Assembly: GCA_003056265.1 (NCBI GenBank)
Contig: NBVN01000005.1
Location: forward strand, 1-32,000
Origin: Zestosphaera tikiterensis
GTDB lineage: Archaea > Thermoproteota > Thermoprotei_A > Sulfolobales > NBVN01
Direction of reading: 5' to 3'
Length of the DNA stretch: 32,000 nucleotides
A model generated the notes under the pieces. That model was not told where the DNA came from and searched no databases. It was given only the letters and a program-made list of their open reading frames with translations. Of this stretch, positions 2,642 to 32,000 are shown piece after piece (positions within the stretch are counted from its first letter, which is position 1; each line of letters begins with the position of its first letter). The position numbers and the translations under genes were made by a program.

Positions 2642-3571
2642 ATGGGTTACTGCGGTCAACCAACTAAAGACTTAGTGACTGTGGTGATCCCTACCTTAAG
2701 GGAGGTTGGTGGGGTAGGTTTAGTTATTGATGAGCTTAAGTCTTTAGGTTTTAAAAACATTTTAGTTGTTGACGGGGGTTCAGACGACGGGACTGTTGAG
2801 GTAGCTGCTTCTAAAGGTGCGAAGGTAGTTCTTCAGGAGGGTGTTGGTAAGGCTGACGCAGTTAAAACTGCGTTGAAGTATGTGTCAACCCCCTATATGT
2901 TGCTTATCGACGGTGACTACAGTTACGACCCGTCGAGAGTTGATTTAATGCTTTCTTTAATGCCTGAATATGATGAGGTTATAGGTGCTAGGTTATTCGG
3001 TAGGGAAAACATACCTTTAATTAATAGGTTTGGTAACTACGTAATTACGAAGGTTTTCAACATATTATTCGGGACTAAACTTAAAGACGTATGCTCTGGT
3101 ATGTGGTTAATTAAAACGGAGGTTCTTAAGGAGGTTTGGTTTGAAAGTAGGGGATTCAGCGTTGAGGTTGAGGTAGCTGCTCACGTAGCCTCAACTTCAA
3201 GAAGGATTACTGAAGTCGGGATAAACTATAGGGAGAGGGTTGGGAAGCCCAAGCTTAGGAAGTATCACGGACTTAAGATTTTATTCGATGCTTTAAGACT
3301 TACTTGGAGGTATAACCCAGCATTACTGATATTCGGTGCTGGCGCGTTAGCTTTAATCCCCGCCTTAGCTATAGTTTCCTGGGTTGCTTACGAGCTGTTA
3401 ATTAACAACGTAAAACATTACGTATGGGCTATATTAGGAGTTACGTTAGGCGGTGTTGGGGTTATCTCCCTACTATTAGCTATGATTGCTTTATATATTA
3501 AGAGATTTGAGTATAGAGTTATCGAGAAGATAGAGAAGCTTAAGAAGAGTTTAAGCGGGAGTAGTTGTTGA
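2642..3571 (+). CDS. GT2-family glycosyltransferase, dolichyl-phosphate hexose synthase-like, with a C-terminal membrane anchor
   Basis: N-terminal GT-A motifs VVIPTLRE, VVDGGSDDGT and LIDGDYSYD (DxD). The C-terminal hydrophobic helices (LLIFGAGALALIPALAIV, ILGVTLGGVGVISLLLAMIALY) are typical of DPM1/AglD/AglJ-like enzymes. Confidence 0.85.
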   Translation: MGYCGQPTKDLVTVVIPTLREVGGVGLVIDELKSLGFKNILVVDGGSDDGTVEVAASKGAKVVLQEGVGKADAVKTALKYVSTPYMLLIDGDYSYDPSRVDLMLSLMPEYDEVIGARLFGRENIPLINRFGNYVITKVFNILFGTKLKDVCSGMWLIKTEVLKEVWFESRGFSVEVEVAAHVASTSRRITEVGINYRERVGKPKLRKYHGLKILFDALRLTWRYNPALLIFGAGALALIPALAIVSWVAYELLINNVKHYVWAILGVTLGGVGVISLLLAMIALYIKRFEYRVIEKIEKLKKSLSGSSC

Positions 3572-3585
3572 GGTGGGGGTTTGAT

Positions 3586-4524
3586 TTGAGGGTTTTAGTT
3601 ACTGGCGGTGTTGGTTTTATAGGTTCGCATGTTGTTGAGGAGCTTGTTAGGGGTGGTTATGAAGTTGTTGTTTTAGATAACCTCAGTAATTCAGATCTTA
3701 GGAATATTGAGGGTTTTTTAGATGAGGTTGTTTTCTTTAAAGGTGATGTTAGGGATTCTGATGTGGTTTCTAAAGCTGTTGAAGGTGTTGATGCTGTTGT
3801 TCATTTAGCTGCTTTAATAGATGCTGTTGAATCTTTCGATAAGCCTCTACTATATCATGAAGTTAACGTTTACGGAACGCACGTGCTTTTGAAGAAATGC
3901 GTTGATTTAGGTGTTTCTAGGTTTATATACGCAAGCACTACAGCGGTTTACGGCGAGCCTGTGAATGTGCCGACGCCTGAGGATGAGTTTTTAAAACCTA
4001 TTAACCCATACGGGCTTACGAAGGCTTTAAGTGAGAAGTTAGTTAAATACTACTCTAGAGCTTACGGTTTGAAAACAACTATATTTAGGTTGTTTAACGT
4101 TTACGGACCTAAGCAATGGAGGAGTAGGTACGCAGGCGTAATAACTAAATTCATCGAGAGGGTCTCGAAGGGTGAGCCACCAATCATATTCGGGGACGGC
4201 GAGCAGGTTAGAGACTTCATATACGTTGAGGACGTAGCTAAAGTATTCATCAAGTCTTTAGAGGAGGGTGTTGACGGCCTGTATAACCTAGGCACGGGAA
4301 GAGGCGTTAAGATTAAAGACTTAGCTGAGTTAGTAATTAAAGCGTTCGGACTTAAAGAATTGAAACCCATACACGCACCCCCAAGACCTGGAGATATTAT
4401 AAGAAGCGTTGCGGACATAACGAAACTTAAGGAGGTATTTAACGTAAAGCTTACAGACCTGGAGGAAGGCATTAGAAAGACTATTGAAGACTATAAAAAC
4501 CACTCTCGAACGAACGGTAGGTAG
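3586..4524 (+). CDS. NAD-dependent nucleotide-sugar epimerase/dehydratase (SDR, GalE-like)
   Basis: Rossmann motif VLVTGGVGFIGSHVV, then ASTTAVYG and the catalytic YGLTK (YxxxK). The track ORF begins at 3565. I prefer the in-frame TTG at 3586 (LRVLVTGG) behind the purine-rich gaggtggggg. The gene overlaps the GT2 stop. Confidence 0.88.
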   Translation: MRVLVTGGVGFIGSHVVEELVRGGYEVVVLDNLSNSDLRNIEGFLDEVVFFKGDVRDSDVVSKAVEGVDAVVHLAALIDAVESFDKPLLYHEVNVYGTHVLLKKCVDLGVSRFIYASTTAVYGEPVNVPTPEDEFLKPINPYGLTKALSEKLVKYYSRAYGLKTTIFRLFNVYGPKQWRSRYAGVITKFIERVSKGEPPIIFGDGEQVRDFIYVEDVAKVFIKSLEEGVDGLYNLGTGRGVKIKDLAELVIKAFGLKELKPIHAPPRPGDIIRSVADITKLKEVFNVKLTDLEEGIRKTIEDYKNHSRTNGR

Positions 4525-4535
4525 GGGGTAGAAAA

Positions 4536-4547
4536 CTTTAAATATTT
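4536..4547 (+). promoter_or_regulatory. TATA-box-like element (ctttaaatattt) upstream of RNA candidate copy 1
   Basis: Archaeal TATA-like A/T octamer in the spacer just after the epimerase stop. No protein gene follows for about 400 nt. Confidence 0.3.
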
Positions 4548-4616
4548 CAAACCGCATCTCTTTGTATTGGATGTGGTATCGAGACGTAGTTGCGTGTTGG
4601 AACCTACTAATAAAAG

Positions 4617-4862
4617 CCTACTTAGGCGATGGGAGCAACGCTCCAAGCCTGGGTAGGTATAACATAGATGGGAGGGTCGTGCCGTTACCCTCGACAGCCG
4701 CCCATGAACCCATAGTGGTGAAGAAACCACTATGGATGAGGTGGAAGTCCCTACCGCAGACACGAAACGCTACAGTTTCAATCAAAATAACACGGTAGGG
4801 ACAAACGGTTAGAAGCGTTAAGTTGTTAAAGCTGTTTAGTAGCTGTAAATCACGGCTTAGAT
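4617..4862 (+). ncRNA. Unclassified structured RNA candidate, copy 1 (about 246 nt)
   Basis: Intergenic, with no credible ORF. Nested helices are 4617-4627/4647-4657 and 4632-4636/4640-4644, then 4668-4672/4701-4705 enclosing 4672-4677/4687-4692. Further helices are 4711-4719/4726-4734 and 4747-4756/4793-4802. A paralog at 30820-31066 has the same length and compensatory changes. Confidence 0.5.
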
Positions 4863-4940
4863 TCTTTCCCTGCGGTATGCGTAGCTTAATCGCTATATAT
4901 CATAACTGCTACCTCCTTAGTAACGTATGCCGTAGTAGCT

Positions 4941-5171
4941 ATGAAGGTTGAGATTTCCCCGCATGCGAGGAGGTGGTTGGCGATGAGGATGATTTCTGAA
5001 GAGCTTGTCTTTAACGGGGTTGTGGATCCGGATAGGGTTTTATTCGATAGGGAAAGCGGGTATTTTATAGCTGTGAAGAAAGTGAATAACATGTTTTTAA
5101 TTATCGCATACCTACTATTTGAGGAAAGGGTTAGAATCGCCGCAACTTTTCAACGTCCGATCCTAACATAG
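4941..5171 (+). CDS. DUF4258-family protein (putative toxin of a DUF4258/DUF2283 pair)
   Basis: 76 aa. The pattern ISPHARRWLAMRMISEELV...YFIAVKK...LIIAY...RVRIAATFQ matches the DUF4258 layout. A DUF2283 gene follows immediately. Confidence 0.65.
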   Translation: MKVEISPHARRWLAMRMISEELVFNGVVDPDRVLFDRESGYFIAVKKVNNMFLIIAYLLFEERVRIAATFQRPILT

Positions 5172-5196
5172 TTGAGAGAAGAGTTGCGAGCGGGAG

Positions 5197-5430
5197 GTGG
5201 GAACCTCTATGAAGGTTGAGTACGATCCTGAGGCGGATATACTGTATATAAGGATAAAGGATGGGAAGATTAAGGAGACTAAAGACCTAGATGAGGATGT
5301 ATGGATAGATGTAAACGATAGAGGAGAGATTGTTGGAATCGAGATTTGGCAAGCGAGAAAACACGTAATACCGGAGATCCTGAAGTTTCTAAAGAAAGGT
5401 AAGGAAGTTAAAGCTTTCATAGAGGCTTAA
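5197..5430 (+). CDS. DUF2283-family protein (putative antitoxin partner)
   Basis: 77 aa. The start MKVEYDPEADILYIRIKDGKI...IVGIEIW is the hallmark DUF2283 motif (YDxExDxLYI). Confidence 0.8.
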   Translation: MGTSMKVEYDPEADILYIRIKDGKIKETKDLDEDVWIDVNDRGEIVGIEIWQARKHVIPEILKFLKKGKEVKAFIEA

Positions 5431-5433
5431 CCC

Positions 5434-5532
5434 TTGGTTAAAGTTAAAGACGTCGCAGATATAACGAAACTTAAGAAGACTGTTGAGGATTACTTAAGGA
5501 AGTTAAACCTTAGGAAATCCGGCAATGCCTGA
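5434..5532 (+). pseudogene. Orphan 3'-end remnant of a GalE-like epimerase gene
   Basis: The frame reads LVKVKDVADITKLKKTVEDYLRKLNLRKSGNA*. Positions 5455-5477 match 4411-4433 of the intact epimerase at 20 of 23 nt (ADITKLK). The remnant stop overlaps the ATG of the next gene (atgcctga), as in a native operon junction. Confidence 0.5.
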
Positions 5533-12139: not shown

Positions 12140-13327
12140 ATGAAGATCCTCAATATCAGTGATGAACTTCGAGAAGGTTTAGCTATTACAGCTTCAATGA
12201 ATCTGCGCGGGCATAAGGTCCTTTACGTGCTACCTGGATCACATTATAAGATCCATCGAGTAAGGCTTCAAACAGACACGGGATCCGTTACTGTTAAATA
12301 CATCGAAATTCCTGTAATACGCTATCCTGGCAGTTCTATAATCTCTACGTTTTTGAAGTGCCGAAATGACCTGTTACAGCAACTATTTGCTACGGAAATT
12401 ATTGATTTTGACATTGTCGTGACTTCATCCTCATACACTTCTTTTTATCTATCGCAATGCGTTTCGAGAATACACCAAATACCACTATTAATAAGGATTT
12501 CGGATTTGGGAATAGTAGGCAAATTTAATGAAGCCATTAAGTTGTTTCACTATTATAATGCATTAATCGAGCTGCCACCTGGTATCTTGCGCCTTTTCAA
12601 ATACGTTACTAGCGGAGATATAGTAATAACTCACACTCATGCGATTTCAAAATTCGTAGAACATTATCTCAATAGGAGAAACATACTGATCTACCCTACG
12701 TATGTTAAAATGCTAACTGAGAACAGTGTACAAGAATCAATAGATGAAAACTATGTGGATATGACGGAACACTCTATATTAGGAATAGTTAACGTAAAAC
12801 GTCCAGCTCTCTCCGGAAAACATGATAGAAAAGCTCTCGAGTGTTTGTATACTATCGCAAAATATAATCCTAGTGTTACTGTTACTATCATTGGTACAAG
12901 CTACAAGGAGGCTTGCACAGTATTGGGAAAATACGAGCTCCCGCCAAACCTAAAACTTCTAGGAGCTATTCGTAACGACCTTATTCTAGAGCATCTATAT
13001 AAGAATTCCTCTTTAATCGTAATTCCTTTCTTTTTCCGTAAAACTATTAGCAATAGACTTCTTGAAGCACTCTTTTATGGAAAACCCGCTTTAATCCCGA
13101 GTAGTCTCAAAGAAGATTTCCCTATGCTAAAGCATGAAGAAAATACATATATGTTCGATGAGTGTGATGAAGCCGCAGTCATGGTTAGATACCTACTTAA
13201 GTCATCTGACGTGTTGGATAGATTGGAGAAGGAAGCGAAGTTGCTATGGGAAGAAACATTCTCTAATCGTATCTTTGGTCTAAAAATGAATTCCGTACTA
13301 AGCTCCCTTTTAGGTTATTTGTATTAA
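12140..13327 (+). CDS. GT-B fold (GT4-like) glycosyltransferase
   Basis: C-terminal NRLLEALFYGKPALIPS motif and overall GT4-like layout (TIIGTS...LLGAI...). Divergent. Confidence 0.6.
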   Translation: MKILNISDELREGLAITASMNLRGHKVLYVLPGSHYKIHRVRLQTDTGSVTVKYIEIPVIRYPGSSIISTFLKCRNDLLQQLFATEIIDFDIVVTSSSYTSFYLSQCVSRIHQIPLLIRISDLGIVGKFNEAIKLFHYYNALIELPPGILRLFKYVTSGDIVITHTHAISKFVEHYLNRRNILIYPTYVKMLTENSVQESIDENYVDMTEHSILGIVNVKRPALSGKHDRKALECLYTIAKYNPSVTVTIIGTSYKEACTVLGKYELPPNLKLLGAIRNDLILEHLYKNSSLIVIPFFFRKTISNRLLEALFYGKPALIPSSLKEDFPMLKHEENTYMFDECDEAAVMVRYLLKSSDVLDRLEKEAKLLWEETFSNRIFGLKMNSVLSSLLGYLY

Positions 13328-22282: not shown

Positions 22283-22780
22283 GGTAAAACATACGTAGCT
22301 GTAAACTAAGAAGAATTAACTTTAAACATACGTAAGCACTTAAGAAGTGTTTAAGTAGGGAGTCCTATATAAACATAAATACCACCACATTAACAACTAA
22401 GTGTTTTGTTTCTTTAGGTAGTGATTTTTATTTAGGGAAACCATAGGTATGAGGTCTTTAAGCTAACTTTAGCTAAGCTTACTAGGGATAGTCGTTAAGG
22501 TTTAATTAAGTCTAGGTTTTAAGCACTCCTAAGTTACTTCCTGAAGATATTATAGAGGGTTTTAATGTGATGTTATTAGTTGCTATCACTTAAGAACTTA
22601 AAGCTTAGGGAAACATCTTAAGATTTGCTTAACTCCGCTTTAACTATATTCTCAACCTTAACATTCTTTAAGGTCATTGCTTTGAAGTTGGCTTTCCTAA
22701 ATCTAGTTGAGGTTTAAATGAAGCTGGATTTACACCTCATTAAGCTTTCAGAAATTCTAAACCGTTAAGAGAGTATTTTT

Positions 22781-22809
22781 CCAGCTAAACATAATTAATG
22801 TTTAGCTGG
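22781..22809. repeat. Perfect 11-bp stem / 7-nt loop hairpin (ccagctaaaca taattaa tgtttagctgg)
   Basis: Read directly. The arms are exact reverse complements. Preceded by a T5 run (gagtattttt). Confidence 0.8.
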
Positions 22810-23483
22810 AGCGAGTTATATGTCGTTAGTAGTTAATAGTTCGTTAGCGGTTTCATAGTTTATTCCACGGCCTTCACGGTTAGTTTGAAAGTCCGTCTAA
22901 TTGCCTTAAACTAACTCCTGAATCCCCTCGACGTGATGGTTAGGTAGGGGCTGGGGTTAGGTCTTGAAGACCTCAGATACCGCAACTCACTTTTCAACAT
23001 CTACGCATTAGCTAGAACAACCGCCGGGGCACACCCACAATACTAACCTACGGAAGCCACGGGATCACCGGCCTTAAGGAAGGTATGAACAGAGCGAGAA
23101 ATACATGGCTCTACAGGCTCCACCTCCTAAACACTCCCTAAAAATCAAACCACAGAAAAACAAGGGAGAAACAACCACAGCTGTGGAGTTAAACCCCACG
23201 CACATCACCTTATTCACCACTTCCATAACTTCCACCTAACGCTGAAAACAAAACGACGTTAATGCTGGTTTTGAGAGGCAAGTTATTAGAAAACCTAGCT
23301 TTGATAAACTTAACAGAGCGTAAATCTACACTCAAGAACAGGCCCCGACTAAACGCTCCAGGTCTGCGTTAGGGTTGGTTGGGTAGGGTGTTAGGGAGGA
23401 TGTTTGGGGAGGGCTCTAGTTTCTAGGATTACCTCTCTAGTATGTTAAATATGTTAAAATAGTAGATAAAACTTATGCTGTTT

Positions 23484-23531
23484 GATTAGTTTTAACGTTA
23501 AACACGAATTCGTGTTTAATTGTCTAATCAG
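23484..23531. repeat. 48-bp interrupted palindrome with a perfect 22-bp core (ttaaacacgaattcgtgtttaa, 23498-23519)
   Basis: The core is an exact palindrome centred on gaattc. The outer arms tgattag (23484-23490) and ctaatca (23525-23531) are also reverse complements. Confidence 0.85.
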
Positions 23532-23947
23532 AATGCCGAGTTAGATTTCCAGCCCCCAGACCCAGAAAATCTACTTCTCGATAAGAGGGTTGGAAAAGCT
23601 AATTGGAGGTCAGATCCCATGAGTAGATTTTTAGAGCTTACCCCCAGAAAAGCTAATTCCTTCGTAAGTGTAAATTTACACTCAGAAAGTAGAAAGCAGA
23701 GCCCCAACCTCCAGCAAAAAGCTAAGTAAAAGCTAAAACAGAAAGAAGGGGCTAAGGACTGGGTAGGCATGCCTTATCCTTGATAAGCTTATCAAACCCT
23801 CCCCCCACAAACCTAAACCCAACACCTAGTTAGAACCTAGTGAATTAAAACCTAAGGCTTACGAAAGCATTTTAGAAGATCCTGAAGTAACTGTGGAGGG
23901 CTATAGAGTTAGTAGATGAAGGTAAGGTTAAAGACCCTACAGACTTA

Positions 23948-26955: not shown

Positions 26956-27318
26956 GTGAATAGTGTGGGCCATGTAAGGGAGCTTATAAAGCTGTATCAC
27001 CGTGGTAGGTCTCTGAGCGTTGAAGCGTTGATAGATACAGGTGCTACGACTCTTGTTCTACCCAGGAGGGTGGCAGAGGAGCTCGGTGCTGAGGTGCTGG
27101 GGGAGATGGATGTGGAGCTGGCCGACGGAACGATTAGGAGGGTGCCCTACACAGTTGTAGAGGTCGAGCTAGGCGGCAGGAGGGGTCCTCTTCTCGCCGC
27201 AATAGTTGAAGGTGGAGAGGTATGCGTAGGGGTGGAAGCTTTGGAGAGGCTTGGCCTAGCCGTAGACCCAGCGACAGGGAGAATACACCCAACGAGAAGA
27301 TTTGTAACAAGGCTTTGA
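26956..27318 (+). CDS. Retropepsin-like (clan AA) aspartic protease, paralog 1
   Basis: ALIDTGATTLVLP (DTG active site), ELADGT and VGVEALERLGLAVDPATG. About 120 aa. Very GC-rich relative to its surroundings. Confidence 0.8.
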   Translation: MNSVGHVRELIKLYHRGRSLSVEALIDTGATTLVLPRRVAEELGAEVLGEMDVELADGTIRRVPYTVVEVELGGRRGPLLAAIVEGGEVCVGVEALERLGLAVDPATGRIHPTRRFVTRL

Positions 27319-27880: not shown

Positions 27881-28267
27881 ATGTATTCAGGGTCTGAGTT
27901 AACCATGGGACATACGATGGCTAGGGTGAAGCTATATAATCCATATGACCTATCGAAGCATGCTGAACTGAATCTGCTCGTAGATACTGAAAGCACATAT
28001 ACCTGGGTTGGGCGTGAGGTGTTAGAAAAACTTGAGGTTAGGCCTACGGCTAGATGGAGATTTAGAGCTATTGATGGTAGAATAGTTGAGAGGGATATAG
28101 GTGAAGCTGTTATTGAATGCCTAGGTGAGAAAGCAACTAGAATAGTTGTCTTTGCTGAAAGAAACGACACGGAAGTTCTCGGTGTTGATGCTTTAGAAGG
28201 ACTTAGACTAGAGGTAGACCCGACAACAAGGCAACTTAAAAAGATAGAAGCATTACTAGCTCTATAA
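27881..28267 (+). CDS. Retropepsin-like aspartic protease, paralog 2 (active site DTES)
   Basis: LLVDTESTYTWV, IDGR and LGVDALEGLRLEVDPTTRQL. The likely true start is ATG 27917 (MARVKLYNPYD...). Confidence 0.75.
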   Translation: MYSGSELTMGHTMARVKLYNPYDLSKHAELNLLVDTESTYTWVGREVLEKLEVRPTARWRFRAIDGRIVERDIGEAVIECLGEKATRIVVFAERNDTEVLGVDALEGLRLEVDPTTRQLKKIEALLAL

Positions 28268-28769: not shown

Positions 28770-29159
28770 GTGGTTAATGTGGGTTTTGTATATGTTGACG
28801 TTATTGTTCATGGGGTTGGGATGTCGAGAAGTATTAAGATGCTCGTTGATATCGGCTCTACCTACATAGTTCTTAAGCCGGATGTTATTAAGGAACTTAA
28901 CCTTTACGAAACACCTTATACGGCTGAGGTAACTTTAGCTGATGGGAGGAAGGTTAGAACTAAGCTGTATTTAGCTGAAGTTGAGGTTAAGGGTAGGAAG
29001 GGACCTGCTTTCATAGTTGAGCTAGACACACCAACACCCCTACTAGGAGTTCACGCACTTGAAACCTTAGGCTTTCGAGTCAACCCCGGAACCGGTGAAG
29101 TAGAGGAGATATCACCGGAAGGAGGATACCTACTTAACCAACAAGCCAAAGAAACATAG
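28770..29159 (+). CDS. Retropepsin-like aspartic protease, paralog 3 (active site DIGS)
   Basis: MLVDIGSTYIVLKP, LADGR and LGVHALETLGFRVNPGTGEV. GTG start. Confidence 0.75.
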   Translation: MVNVGFVYVDVIVHGVGMSRSIKMLVDIGSTYIVLKPDVIKELNLYETPYTAEVTLADGRKVRTKLYLAEVEVKGRKGPAFIVELDTPTPLLGVHALETLGFRVNPGTGEVEEISPEGGYLLNQQAKET

Positions 29160-29936: not shown

Positions 29937-30212
29937 GTGGTTAAGGTTAAGACTAGCATATACGTGGATAGGGAGTTGTGGGAGAGGTTTAAGAAGTATG
30001 CGTTACGGAGGGGTGTGGAGGTTAGTAAGCTTCTTGAAGATATGGTTAGAGACGAAATGATTGAAGAAATTTTGGATGAGGCGTTGTTGAGTATGGTTGG
30101 TTCGGAGGATTACGAGATAGATTTCAAGCCTATCAAGCCTAGAGAAGGTCTTGTAAGCGAGTTGATTAGAGTTGCGAGGGAAGAAAGAGCTAGCGATATA
30201 CCTAGACAGTAG
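29937..30212 (+). CDS. vapB: Ribbon-helix-helix antitoxin (VapB-like)
   Basis: VKVKTSIYVDRELWERFKKYALRRGVEVSKLLEDMVRDEM is a classic RHH N-terminus. It overlaps the downstream PIN gene. Confidence 0.75.
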   Translation: MVKVKTSIYVDRELWERFKKYALRRGVEVSKLLEDMVRDEMIEEILDEALLSMVGSEDYEIDFKPIKPREGLVSELIRVAREERASDIPRQ

Positions 30213-30642
30213 TGCTAGTGCTATAGTGAAGAGGTATATTGAAGAACCGGGAAGTAATGTTGTAAGAGAGCTCCATTTAAAAGCATACTCTAGGGAGGTC
30301 TTCCTATCATCCAGCATATGGAATGTTGGGGAGGTTTTAGGAGCGTTTGATAGAGCTAAAGTCATCGGTAGAATGTATGAGGAAACATACATCACAGTCA
30401 GGAGGAGATTCCTGTTAGAGACTAGAAGGATGGCGAGGCTGAGATCCCTGCGGGTAGTCCCGTTGAGGATGGGGATCCTAGTGGAGGGCTGGAAGCTCAT
30501 AGAGAAGTATCACATCTACGAAGCCGACGCTATACAACTAGCTTCAGCAAAATACGTGAACGCTTCACAGTTTCTAACAGGGGATAAGCAACTTCATGAA
30601 GTAGCCACAGAAGAGAAGCTAAATAGCATGTATTTAGGATAG
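30172..30642 (+). CDS. vapC: PIN-domain ribonuclease toxin
   Basis: IYLDSSA (Asp1), conserved acidic residues at GEVLGAF, YEADAIQLASA and TGDKQL. TTG start overlapping vapB. Confidence 0.8.
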   Translation: MRGKKELAIYLDSSASAIVKRYIEEPGSNVVRELHLKAYSREVFLSSSIWNVGEVLGAFDRAKVIGRMYEETYITVRRRFLLETRRMARLRSLRVVPLRMGILVEGWKLIEKYHIYEADAIQLASAKYVNASQFLTGDKQLHEVATEEKLNSMYLG

Positions 30643-30819
30643 GAAATTAAATATTCAATTAAAGATTAGTAGCTAACCACACATTTACTTCACGCACACA
30701 AAACCGCATATAGCGAACGCATAGACGTTCGTAAGCATGATTTATTGGGCTGTAACCTATTTGATGTTCGGAGATATAGCTTATAAGCATTTTCACTACT
30801 AATAGTATGTTGGGAGTCC

Positions 30820-31066
30820 GCTTAGGCGATGGGAGCAATGCTCCAAGCCTAAGCAAAAACTTAAACATAGATGGGAGGGTCGTGCCGTTACCCTCGACAG
30901 CCGCCCATGAACCTACGGGATGAGGTAAGCAAGCCCTCTAGGTGGAGGCGGAACTCCCTAGATAAGACCACGAAAACATATGAAATGACTGAAATGAACA
31001 TCTAGGGAGAAACGGTAGTAACGTGTTTAACAAGGTAGTGGAGGCACTCTCTAAGAATGCTTAGAT
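30820..31066 (+). ncRNA. Unclassified structured RNA candidate, copy 2 (about 247 nt)
   Basis: Positions 30821-30851 match 4621-4651 at 30 of 31 nt, and 30865-30913 are identical to 4662-4710 (49 nt). The 3' half is divergent, but helices are kept by compensatory changes (30954-30963/31000-31009 versus 4747-4756/4793-4802). Both copies end in the shared gcttagat. Confidence 0.5.
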
Positions 31067-31095: not shown

Positions 31096-31587
31096 TTAGC
31101 TCTTCAGAGCTTTAACGAATTCGTTAAAACTTTGAGACTTTGCTATAGCATGATCTACGTCTATGACTCTAGCTATGTCCCTATAAGGCTTCTCAGCTTT
31201 GACGACGATCTTACTGATCCTCTCGCTTAATCTCCTCTCCGGATCCACCACATCTTCAGGGTTTTCCTCGCATAAGCCAGCTAGAATCCATGACTCAATA
31301 GATTTGTTAACTCTTAAAACCCTTACTACAACACCTTTATTCTTCAAATCCATTAAGCCCCTACTCACCTCTTTATCGAACTTCTCCAGCGTGTCTTCCG
31401 CTAATCCATGCGTATCCTTTAGAAGTAATATGTAGTTATAAGTGTCTACTAAAGCCCTAGCCTTCCTAACAGCCTTCTCCACTCTGTTACCTCTTAAAAC
31501 GAAGGCTTTACATTTAACGCTAAGTCTCCTACATACCTCCTCAATAAAGCCAGCATCACTGCTACCTTCAACAAATACGGCTATCAT
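31096..31587 (-). CDS. DUF4276/TOPRIM-like small protein, partner of the upstream ATPase
   Basis: MIAVFVEGSSDAGFIEEV (EG..D TOPRIM-like start), LLLKDTHG and KSIESWILAGL (the E.W.LA motif seen in DUF4276/RloB-like proteins). Its start overlaps the ATPase stop (ATGA-type coupling). Confidence 0.6.
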   Translation of the reverse strand: MIAVFVEGSSDAGFIEEVCRRLSVKCKAFVLRGNRVEKAVRKARALVDTYNYILLLKDTHGLAEDTLEKFDKEVSRGLMDLKNKGVVVRVLRVNKSIESWILAGLCEENPEDVVDPERRLSERISKIVVKAEKPYRDIARVIDVDHAIAKSQSFNEFVKALKS

Positions 31588-32000
31588 TCCACATCACCAA
31601 AGAATCTCGAGTACCACGCTTCACCGAGGGTACCGCCTTCCTTAAGGAACTTCCTCACAACCTCGGCTTCACTTCCCTCAATTAACTTCTTAACCTTAGT
31701 TTCCGACCCCACCTTACCCACAATAAAAACCTCCTCAGGATTGACGTAGTCGAGTAGATGTGGTGATTGCGTAGTAAATATTACTTGGGAGGGGGCCTTC
31801 CTCGCTAAATCTACAAGAGCTTCAAGTAGGTTTGGATGCACGTGGTTTTCAGGCTCTTCAACAGCTACAACATTGAACCCTGCGTTAAGTATGAAAGCTA
31901 TTGCTAAAAGCCTTATAGTCCCGTCGGATATGCCCCCAGGCCTAAGGGGTAGGGTGAGGTCTCTAGACTTAAGCCATACCTCAACAACGTTACCCTCTAT
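31584..32000 (-). CDS. ABC/AAA_21-like ATPase, C-terminal part (gene continues beyond the right edge)
   Basis: The reverse complement is open from position 32000: ...GGISDGTIRLLAIAFILNAGFNVVAVEEPENHVHPNLLEALVDLARKAPSQVIFTTQSPHLL... This gives an ABC signature-like SDGT, Walker B VAVEEPE, the H-loop and TTQSP. Confidence 0.75.
   Translation of the reverse strand: MEGNVVEVWLKSRDLTLPLRPGGISDGTIRLLAIAFILNAGFNVVAVEEPENHVHPNLLEALVDLARKAPSQVIFTTQSPHLLDYVNPEEVFIVGKVGSETKVKKLIEGSEAEVVRKFLKEGGTLGEAWYSRFFGDVE

Follow-up and report, generated by a model that had tools for sequence, protein, structure and literature searches.

The stretch of DNA analyzed here, hereafter the window, comprises the first 32,000 nt of contig NBVN01000005.1 of the archaeon Zestosphaera tikiterensis. 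In the spacer 3′ of its epimerase gene (3565–4524), a segment of approximately 195 nt (4614–4810, copy 1) was found to be related to a second segment lying in the same orientation towards the other end of the window (30814–31017, copy 2). A covariance model built from relatives of these sequences scored 189.8 bits for copy 1 and 165.6 bits for copy 2 in cmsearch, and the same search detected no further copies in the 32-kb window. The two segments share a 50-nt block of 100% identity and a 30-nt block of 97% identity, and the existence of two copies, proposed earlier in a sequence-only reading of this DNA, is borne out by these blocks and by the model scores. That reading had placed copy 1 at 4617–4862. 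A conserved unit is present there but it ends at 4808, with 4809–4862 being unconserved flank. Copy 1 was predicted to fold with an energy of −88.1 kcal/mol (z = −7.0 against shuffled sequence), with a weaker fold for copy 2 (z = −2.9 against shuffled sequence). The features discussed below are listed in Table 1.

Table 1. Features of the two ωRNA-related copies in the window; helices are those of copy 1.
Feature	Position	Strand	Basis or remark
Very probable ORF-less mini-IS607 element, copy 1, about 283 bp	4526–4808	+	Left-end GG to right-end GG; left-end and ωRNA matches
Left end (LE), copy 1, with putative BRE/TATA promoter TTTAAATA at 4537–4544	4526–4569	+	Alignment to L030 and L003
tnpB relic, last 75 codons (RuvC-III region to native stop)	4571–4798	+	Inside ORF 4562–4798; tblastn
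Putative ωRNA scaffold, copy 1	4616–4808	+	Pairs intact; covariation; cmsearch 189.8 bits
P1	4616–4627/4647–4658	+	Covariation-supported, 25 sequences
P1b (GGAGC/GCUCC)	4632–4636/4640–4644	+	Consensus helix
P2 (GAGGGU/ACCCUC)	4672–4677/4687–4692	+	Covariation-supported
P3	4698–4702 + 4705–4706/4737–4738 + 4740–4744	+	Consensus helix
P3b	4710–4719/4726–4735	+	Covariation-supported
P4	4747–4756/4793–4802	+	Covariation-supported
Candidate pseudoknot (CCGUU of P2 loop with AACGG of 3′ end)	4682–4686/4804–4808	+	Complementarity
Predicted guide, copy 1	4809–4828	+	Flank 3′ of right end; length assumed to be about 16–20 nt
Degenerate left-end region, copy 2, boundary uncertain	30712–30815	+	Aligns to orphans L042, L019, L031 and L040
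Putative ωRNA scaffold, copy 2	30816–31015	+	cmsearch 165.6 bits; 43/49 pairs; TnpB frame with stop codons
Predicted guide, copy 2	31016–31035	+	Flank after AAACGG

To place this RNA among known families, the whole window was scanned against Rfam with cmscan at gathering thresholds, which returned no match. A permissive scan of positions 4400–5100 (E ≤ 10) gave three weak matches, none of which fell within the scaffold: sR39 and REN-SRE lie beyond 4975, and ssnA lies at 4833–4867 in the 3′ flank. The absence of this RNA from Rfam, suspected earlier, was thus confirmed by both scans. No tRNA or tmRNA is present, and three viral contig scans and a search of a phage collection gave no match. An RNase P-like reading, prompted by the motifs GAGGUGGAAGUCC and ACAAACGG, was dropped because no RNase P model matched at E ≤ 10 and because of homology to tnpB.

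This homology was detected by a BLASTN search against plasmids, in which the one match was to plasmid pGE2 of Pyrococcus abyssi (73.5% identity over 183 nt). The match takes in the final ~170 nt of a gene annotated as tnpB and continues for 12 nt beyond its stop codon, and the C-terminus of the pGE2 TnpB (…HRDILAVWNLYLRALQSDGSNAPSSGGLFADGSPVPLGSTATNEAIWIEKSRWLRWNSLPPTQTN…) is colinear with the product of window ORF 4562–4798 (…YRDVVACWNLLIKAYLGDGSNAPSLGRYNIDGRVVPLPSTAAHEPIVVKKPLWMRWKSLPQTRN…). When six full-length TnpB proteins were compared with the window by tblastn, this ORF aligned with residues 347–413 of the TnpB of locus L023 (E = 3e-25, 69% identity), copy 2 was found to contain a shorter TnpB piece with its frame broken by stop codons, and no other TnpB homology was found in the 32-kb window. 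No TnpA homology was found in the window either. The statement of the sequence-only reading that the gap 4524–4941 holds no credible coding frame can therefore not be retained, as ORF 4562–4798 is the C-terminal end of TnpB. It is, however, barely credible that this ORF is a small protein gene with a functional 78-aa product of its own. Copy 1 and a sister strain both have the frame open, with products 93% identical, but what it encodes is a TnpB C-terminal tail without the catalytic core, it is interrupted by stop codons or frameshifts in copy 2 and most orphans, and it has no Pfam match.

Judged by its homology to the 3′ end of IS607-family tnpB genes, the RNA is an archaeal IS607 TnpB ωRNA (reRNA) scaffold in standalone form, and as such belongs to a known class and is not a new kind of RNA. 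In the TnpB systems that have been studied, the scaffold of the guide RNA (ωRNA/reRNA) is encoded at the tnpB 3′ end (PMC10055086; PMC11061315). The original proposal of a structured RNA with two copies and a promoter-like TATA upstream thus stands, while its description as unclassifiable does not. Conservation at the protein level, which had been regarded as an argument against an RNA, does exist in that the same DNA codes for the TnpB C-terminus in intact elements, but an RNA is not thereby refuted, an overlap with the end of the tnpB ORF being a known property of ωRNAs. In the tnpB-less copies the reading frames are broken, yet 39–49 of the 49 tested base pairs are kept.

To collect related copies, GTDB representative genomes were scanned with the invariant 21-mer GATGGGAGCAAYGCTCCAAGC. 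This gave 38 loci, one of which, in a planctomycete, was rejected as a chance match. Hosts were found among the Desulfurococcales, Sulfolobales, Thermofilaceae, Ignisphaera, Acidilobaceae, Nezhaarchaeota and other Thermoproteota. Metagenomes contributed three further copies, one of them (the orphan L040) by means of a copy-specific 24-mer, and the family totals more than 40 related copies with the Pyrococcus plasmid included. Classification was possible for 33 copies with enough upstream sequence. Ten carry a full or near-full tnpB with the RNA at the gene end, four (copy 1 included) retain a stub of tnpB that is at most 91 codons long, and 19 (copy 2 included) show no tnpB homology upstream of the RNA. 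The tnpB-less elements outnumber intact ones (19 vs 10 of 33) in this sample, in which every related copy except L040 was retrieved by the exact 21-nt pattern and the orphan fraction may be biased.

In the full-length copies examined (L001, L020, L021, L025, L030, and L032), a serine-recombinase gene precedes tnpB and overlaps its start. One of these recombinases, that of L030, was scanned for domains and scored 231 bits on the IS607 family transposase model NF033518 (cutoff 110); Resolvase and HTH_17 domains were also recognized in it. The TnpB proteins of the family match TIGR01766 and a Cas12f1-like TNB domain, with guided_TnpB scores of 88–90 bits falling just below the 100-bit cutoff. A protein search with the TnpB stub returned other short stubs only. 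It should also be noted that one MAG (KUA_Bin18) contains, besides L020, two tnpB-less copies (L007 and L026) which have their LE–ωRNA junction in common but differ in the type of P2 stem (GAGCUC/GGGCUC vs GUCCCG/CGGGAC), a combination which points to independent deletions at the same point or to recombination between a mini-element and a full-length element.

The secondary structure was derived from an alignment of 25 complete copies (A3) with RNAalifold. The consensus comprised 44 pairs, 25 of which show compensatory changes, and an explicit count was made of these pairs together with those of a candidate pseudoknot, giving 49 tested pairs. Standard pairs were formed in 96.6% of cells compared to 31–48% when the partners were slid by 1–3 columns, and changes on both sides were seen in 138 cells compared to 38 ± 5 in shuffles. 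The covariation score was 0.392 against 0.148 in shuffles, with the observed value being reached by none of 500 shuffles. The test for covariation, which the sequence-only reading had suggested, was thus strongly positive.

Most of the helices of the sequence-only reading were recovered. The 11-bp stem 4617–4627/4647–4657 with its GGAGC/GCUCC hairpin (P1 and P1b), the GAGGGU/ACCCUC helix (P2), the hairpin 4711–4719/4726–4734 (P3b, now one pair longer) and the stem P4 are all present, with P1, P2, P3b, and P4 supported by compensatory changes among the 25 sequences. The outermost pair of P4 shows a clean G-C/C-G swap across the family (GGAAGUCCC...GGGAC vs GGAACUCCC...GGGAG). P1b is invariant among the pattern-retrieved copies because the exact 21-mer of the search imposes it, and L040, which was found with the other pattern, has the P1b stem with a different loop. 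The AUGGG/CCCAU helix proposed earlier (4668–4672/4701–4705) found no support: its positions do not covary, and 9 of the 25 sequences break one of its pairs. It is replaced by the pairing of CCGCC (4698–4702) with GGUGG (4740–4744), because of which the stretch GAGGUGGAAG, previously described as single-stranded, is largely paired. The CCGUU of the P2 loop is complementary to the AACGG of the 3′ end in 24 of the 25 sequences, with both sides invariant and the pairing for that reason not supportable by covariation. It is possible that these strands form a guide-proximal pseudoknot like PK1/PK2 of the ISFba1 reRNA.

Copy 1 has every one of the 49 tested consensus pairs intact, the five of the candidate pseudoknot included, while copy 2 retains 43 of 49 in the MAFFT alignment. 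Its P1 is shortened to 30820–30827/30847–30854, the outer part of the helix being gone, and its scaffold ends with AAACGG at 31010–31015. Copy 1 thus looks fully competent and copy 2 partly decayed.

Similarity among all copies stops directly after ...GGGA(C/G)AAACGG. As GG is the core dinucleotide of IS607 recombination at either end of the element (PMC10690162), this abrupt stop points to AAACGG being the transposon right end. Left ends start with GG(G)C(A/T)G, giving GG at both boundaries. In most of the 19 copies without tnpB, a promoter-bearing left end is joined to the ωRNA a short way upstream of it. The tnpB-less copies share the motif GGGC(A/T)G(A/T)AA...TTTAWATA, and it was taken to represent the left end with the BRE/TATA promoter of tnpA because the same sequence occurs just upstream of tnpA in the full-length L030 and L032. 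In copy 1, GGGTAGAAAACTTTAAATATTTCAAACCGCATCTCTTTGTAT aligns with GGGCAGAAATCTTTAAATATTTCAAACTGTATCATTTTATAT directly upstream of L030 tnpA and with the orphan L003, and the left end begins two bases past the epimerase stop codon (4522–4524). The TATA-like motif noted earlier at 4536–4547 is present and conserved as the tnpA promoter in the left end of full-length relatives, and transcription of copy 1 is predicted to start near 4566. No TAM was detected upstream of the left ends, where nothing is conserved beyond GG.

The same arrangement was found repeatedly. The deletion in L007 and L026 runs from the tnpA ATG to 1–2 nt before P1, and in L003 and the group of L019, L031, L040, and L042 a promoter-bearing left end is fused closely to P1, resulting in a recurrent layout of left end/promoter, ωRNA and right end within about 250–290 bp. 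Copy 2 belongs to the L019/L042 group according to the alignment from left end to ωRNA. A TATA-like GCTTATAAGC lies at 30780–30789, about 25–30 nt upstream of its P1, with a second LE-like stretch nearby at 30636–30712.

It remains highly improbable that these copies are a new and independent structured ncRNA with a host function unrelated to transposons, as was originally proposed. The lack of an Rfam match and the strong covariation-supported fold would suit such an RNA, but it is colinear with the tnpB 3′ ends of intact IS607 elements across several archaeal orders and its sequence ends exactly at the transposon right end.

The position of the guide was taken from published TnpB systems, and would for each copy be the sequence directly following the right end (Table 1). 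The predicted guide of copy 1 has no match in the window other than itself. For that of copy 2, one other match was found in the window at 12592–12611 on the minus strand (17/20, with 3 mismatches and the first 9 nt matching). This match lies inside the gene 12140–13327, without GG 5′ of it, and is probably due to chance (about 0.01 expected).

The homology to tnpB 3′ ends, the covarying fold, the sharp right end and the retention of the left end with its promoter are all observed in these sequences. IS607-family transposons encode two proteins, the serine recombinase TnpA and the RNA-guided nuclease TnpB. Each copy is very likely the right-end module of an IS607 element from which tnpA and tnpB have been deleted, and hence an ORF-less mini-element with a standalone ωRNA. 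Such an element of ~280 bp would consist of a left end with a BRE/TATA promoter, an ωRNA scaffold of ~193 nt which overlaps the last ~180 nt of tnpB in intact elements, and a right end finishing in ...AAACGG. Transcription would proceed from the left-end promoter through the scaffold and ~16–20 nt into the flanking DNA, with this last stretch serving as guide. The RNA would then be bound in trans by a TnpB that a full-length element of the family encodes at another locus of the genome. After excision, the TnpB–ωRNA complex would be expected to cut the ‘empty’ donor joint and homologous recombination to restore the element, as in IS605/IS607, for which cleavage of the vacated donor joint by TnpB and restoration by recombination have been described (PMC10055086; PMC10690162). 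TnpA supplied in trans could also move the element via the same ends. By analogy with standalone ωRNAs reported to work in trans (PMC10691335) and with the published ωRNA-bearing PATE elements (PMC10055086), the mini-elements probably use TnpB in trans.

Whether the copies are still active is a separate matter, as they could also be dead wreckage, that is 5′-truncated IS607 remnants which are neither expressed nor mobile and whose fold is inherited and not maintained. This is possible, although we consider it doubtful. The window lacks both tnpB and tnpA, in copy 2 six of the 49 pairs are broken and the left end is degenerate, and the relatives L015, L018, L037, and L039 are clearly decaying, with scores of 58–90 bits. 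The outer part of P1 is disrupted in the sister strain L041, which neutral decay would also produce. Against this, all pairs of copy 1 are perfectly preserved together with an intact left-end promoter, and distinct tnpB-less groups with different left-end types have lost the interval between left end and ωRNA but not the ωRNA, keeping nothing except this and the ends. A single MAG can also contain tnpB-less copies with the same LE–ωRNA junction at separate loci (L007/L026 and L005/L035), helices are kept where the reading frame is destroyed, and standalone ωRNAs have a demonstrated ability to work in trans (PMC10691335). These points argue for continued function over pure decay.

Comparison with related strains showed this region to be variable. 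L041 (JGI 3300005800; 135–334, 961–1112) represents the same locus as copy 1 with 97.3% identity. The 3′ strand of its P1 is replaced by sequence of the copy-2 type, breaking the outer pairs, which suggests gene conversion between copies. It diverges from the window beyond position 5437, where a further ...CTAGACAAACGG terminus on its minus strand may mark the right end of some other element. L042 (JGI 3300005801; 380–2216), with flanks 98.4% identical to the window, carries 1.84 kb of additional sequence inserted between its glycosyltransferase gene and its epimerase gene (window 3574–3582). Within this insertion lie a gene with a B12-binding domain, an ORF of 224 aa and a third copy of the ωRNA, which is of the same type as copy 2 and is 3′-truncated, being without the 3′ half of P4 and the terminal AAACGG. 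No clean empty site was found for the window lineage, L041 being the copy 1 locus itself and L042 a composite insertion.

Downstream of a DUF2283 pair in the window lies the relic of a second epimerase C-terminus (5431–5532; …VADITKLKK…TVEDYLRKLNLRKSGNA, followed by a stop codon), accompanied by a repeat (4407–4434/5451–5478). Because this relic is the older one, the ~1-kb block 4435–5450, which holds the current epimerase 3′ end, copy 1 of the mini-element and a small-ORF/DUF2283 pair, looks to have been inserted into the original end of the epimerase gene or to have replaced it.

On a larger scale, the two ωRNA elements lie as direct repeats (4526–31015) on either side of a cluster of ~26 kb with genes for glycosyltransferases and sugar modification, within which the GC content ranges from 0.36 to 0.46. 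With such a layout, the cluster might more readily be deleted, exchanged or moved en bloc. It is very unlikely, however, that the copies are domesticated guide RNAs steering a (possibly nuclease-dead) TnpB in a TldR-like manner, or the ends of a composite element carrying the 26-kb cluster. Their common orientation around the gene cluster and the strain variability of the locus, with a further ωRNA copy there in a sister strain, are compatible with this, and there is a precedent for TnpB domestication (PMC10705468). The predicted guides, though, match their own flanks only, the lone match with 3 mismatches being without GG; no TnpB-like gene lies nearby within the window; and copy 2 has a degenerate left end.

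Beyond the mini-element interpretation itself, it could be proposed that guide-only ‘promoter + ωRNA’ mini-IS607s are selected and widespread hyperparasites in hyperthermophilic Thermoproteota, and that the two in the window may promote the retention, exchange or mobilization of the strain-variable 26-kb cluster as a unit. Mini-elements would then have arisen repeatedly through deletions that begin at the tnpA start codon and stop at the first helix of the ωRNA, and any such effect on the cluster would come about via TnpB-triggered recombination or by TnpA acting on the outer ends. We regard this extended proposal as rather improbable.

Of the other features of the window, a region of ~1.6 kb (22283–23947) has no ORF above 80 aa, although coding density is high in the rest of the sequence. 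It has no Rfam match, and a weak 12-nt tandem repeat at 23378–23412 was all that was detected there. Three paralogous ORFs of ~120–130 aa (26956–27318, 27881–28267, and 28770–29159), recognized by eye, encode what we take to be retropepsin-type aspartic protease-like proteins. They lie upstream of a VapB-like/PIN pair (29937–30642; the PIN ORF was domain-scanned) and of a region (31096–31841) with a weak DUF4276 match followed by an ORF which, from a look at its sequence, resembles an ATPase fragment.

As standalone ωRNAs are already present in the literature, the novelty of these elements is modest, and consists of an archaeal IS607 ωRNA family that is missing from Rfam. The covariation-supported model could be used to annotate ‘intergenic structured RNAs’ and short spurious ORFs in the Desulfurococcales, Sulfolobales, and Thermofilaceae. 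The promoter–ωRNA mini-elements, frequent in this sample, would provide an archaeal IS607-type example of guide-only elements exploiting TnpB in trans, and a scaffold from hyperthermophiles may be of interest to developers of thermostable TnpB editors.

Among known systems, the window elements most directly recall the OMEGA ωRNAs/reRNAs of ISDra2, SisTnpB1 of Sulfolobus islandicus, ISFba1 and the Cbo IS607 TnpB, with which they share a position at the tnpB 3′ end overlapping the end of the ORF, a scaffold reaching the transposon right end, and a multi-helix organization of ~190 nt followed by a flank-derived guide, with a possible guide-proximal pseudoknot. The ISFba1 reRNA has a 187-nt scaffold with stem-loops and pseudoknots (PMC11061315). 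A right end finishing in GG is also shared with the IS607 TnpB relatives. The window elements differ from the OMEGA systems in being without a tnpB gene, in having a scaffold that matches no curated RNA family, and in being known from sequence alone. The RAGATH-18-derived reRNA of bacterial IS607 TnpB (PMC11061315) and the IS605-orfB/sotRNA motifs have the same role and position. RAGATH-18 was, however, absent among the Rfam matches (whole window at gathering thresholds; copy 1 region at E ≤ 10), and the helices and motifs appear to be different.

Protein-less standalone ωRNAs which borrow TnpB in trans (Altae-Tran 2021, summarized in PMC10691335) are similar to the window type, as are the PATE-like ORF-less IS605 elements (Meers 2023; PMC10055086), which have kept their ends and ωRNA and borrow TnpB (and TnpA). 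In contrast to both, the window elements derive from IS607, which has a serine recombinase and no hairpin ends, and carry their ωRNA directly behind what was once the tnpA promoter; the hosts are hyperthermophilic Thermoproteota. By their description, the ~260-nt IS607-related ‘MITEs’ of Staphylothermus marinus (PMC2678158) are of similar size, come from a similar kind of host (Desulfurococcaceae) and show similarity to the DNA that precedes IS607 transposase genes. They differ in that inverted repeats were described for them and no RNA was proposed.
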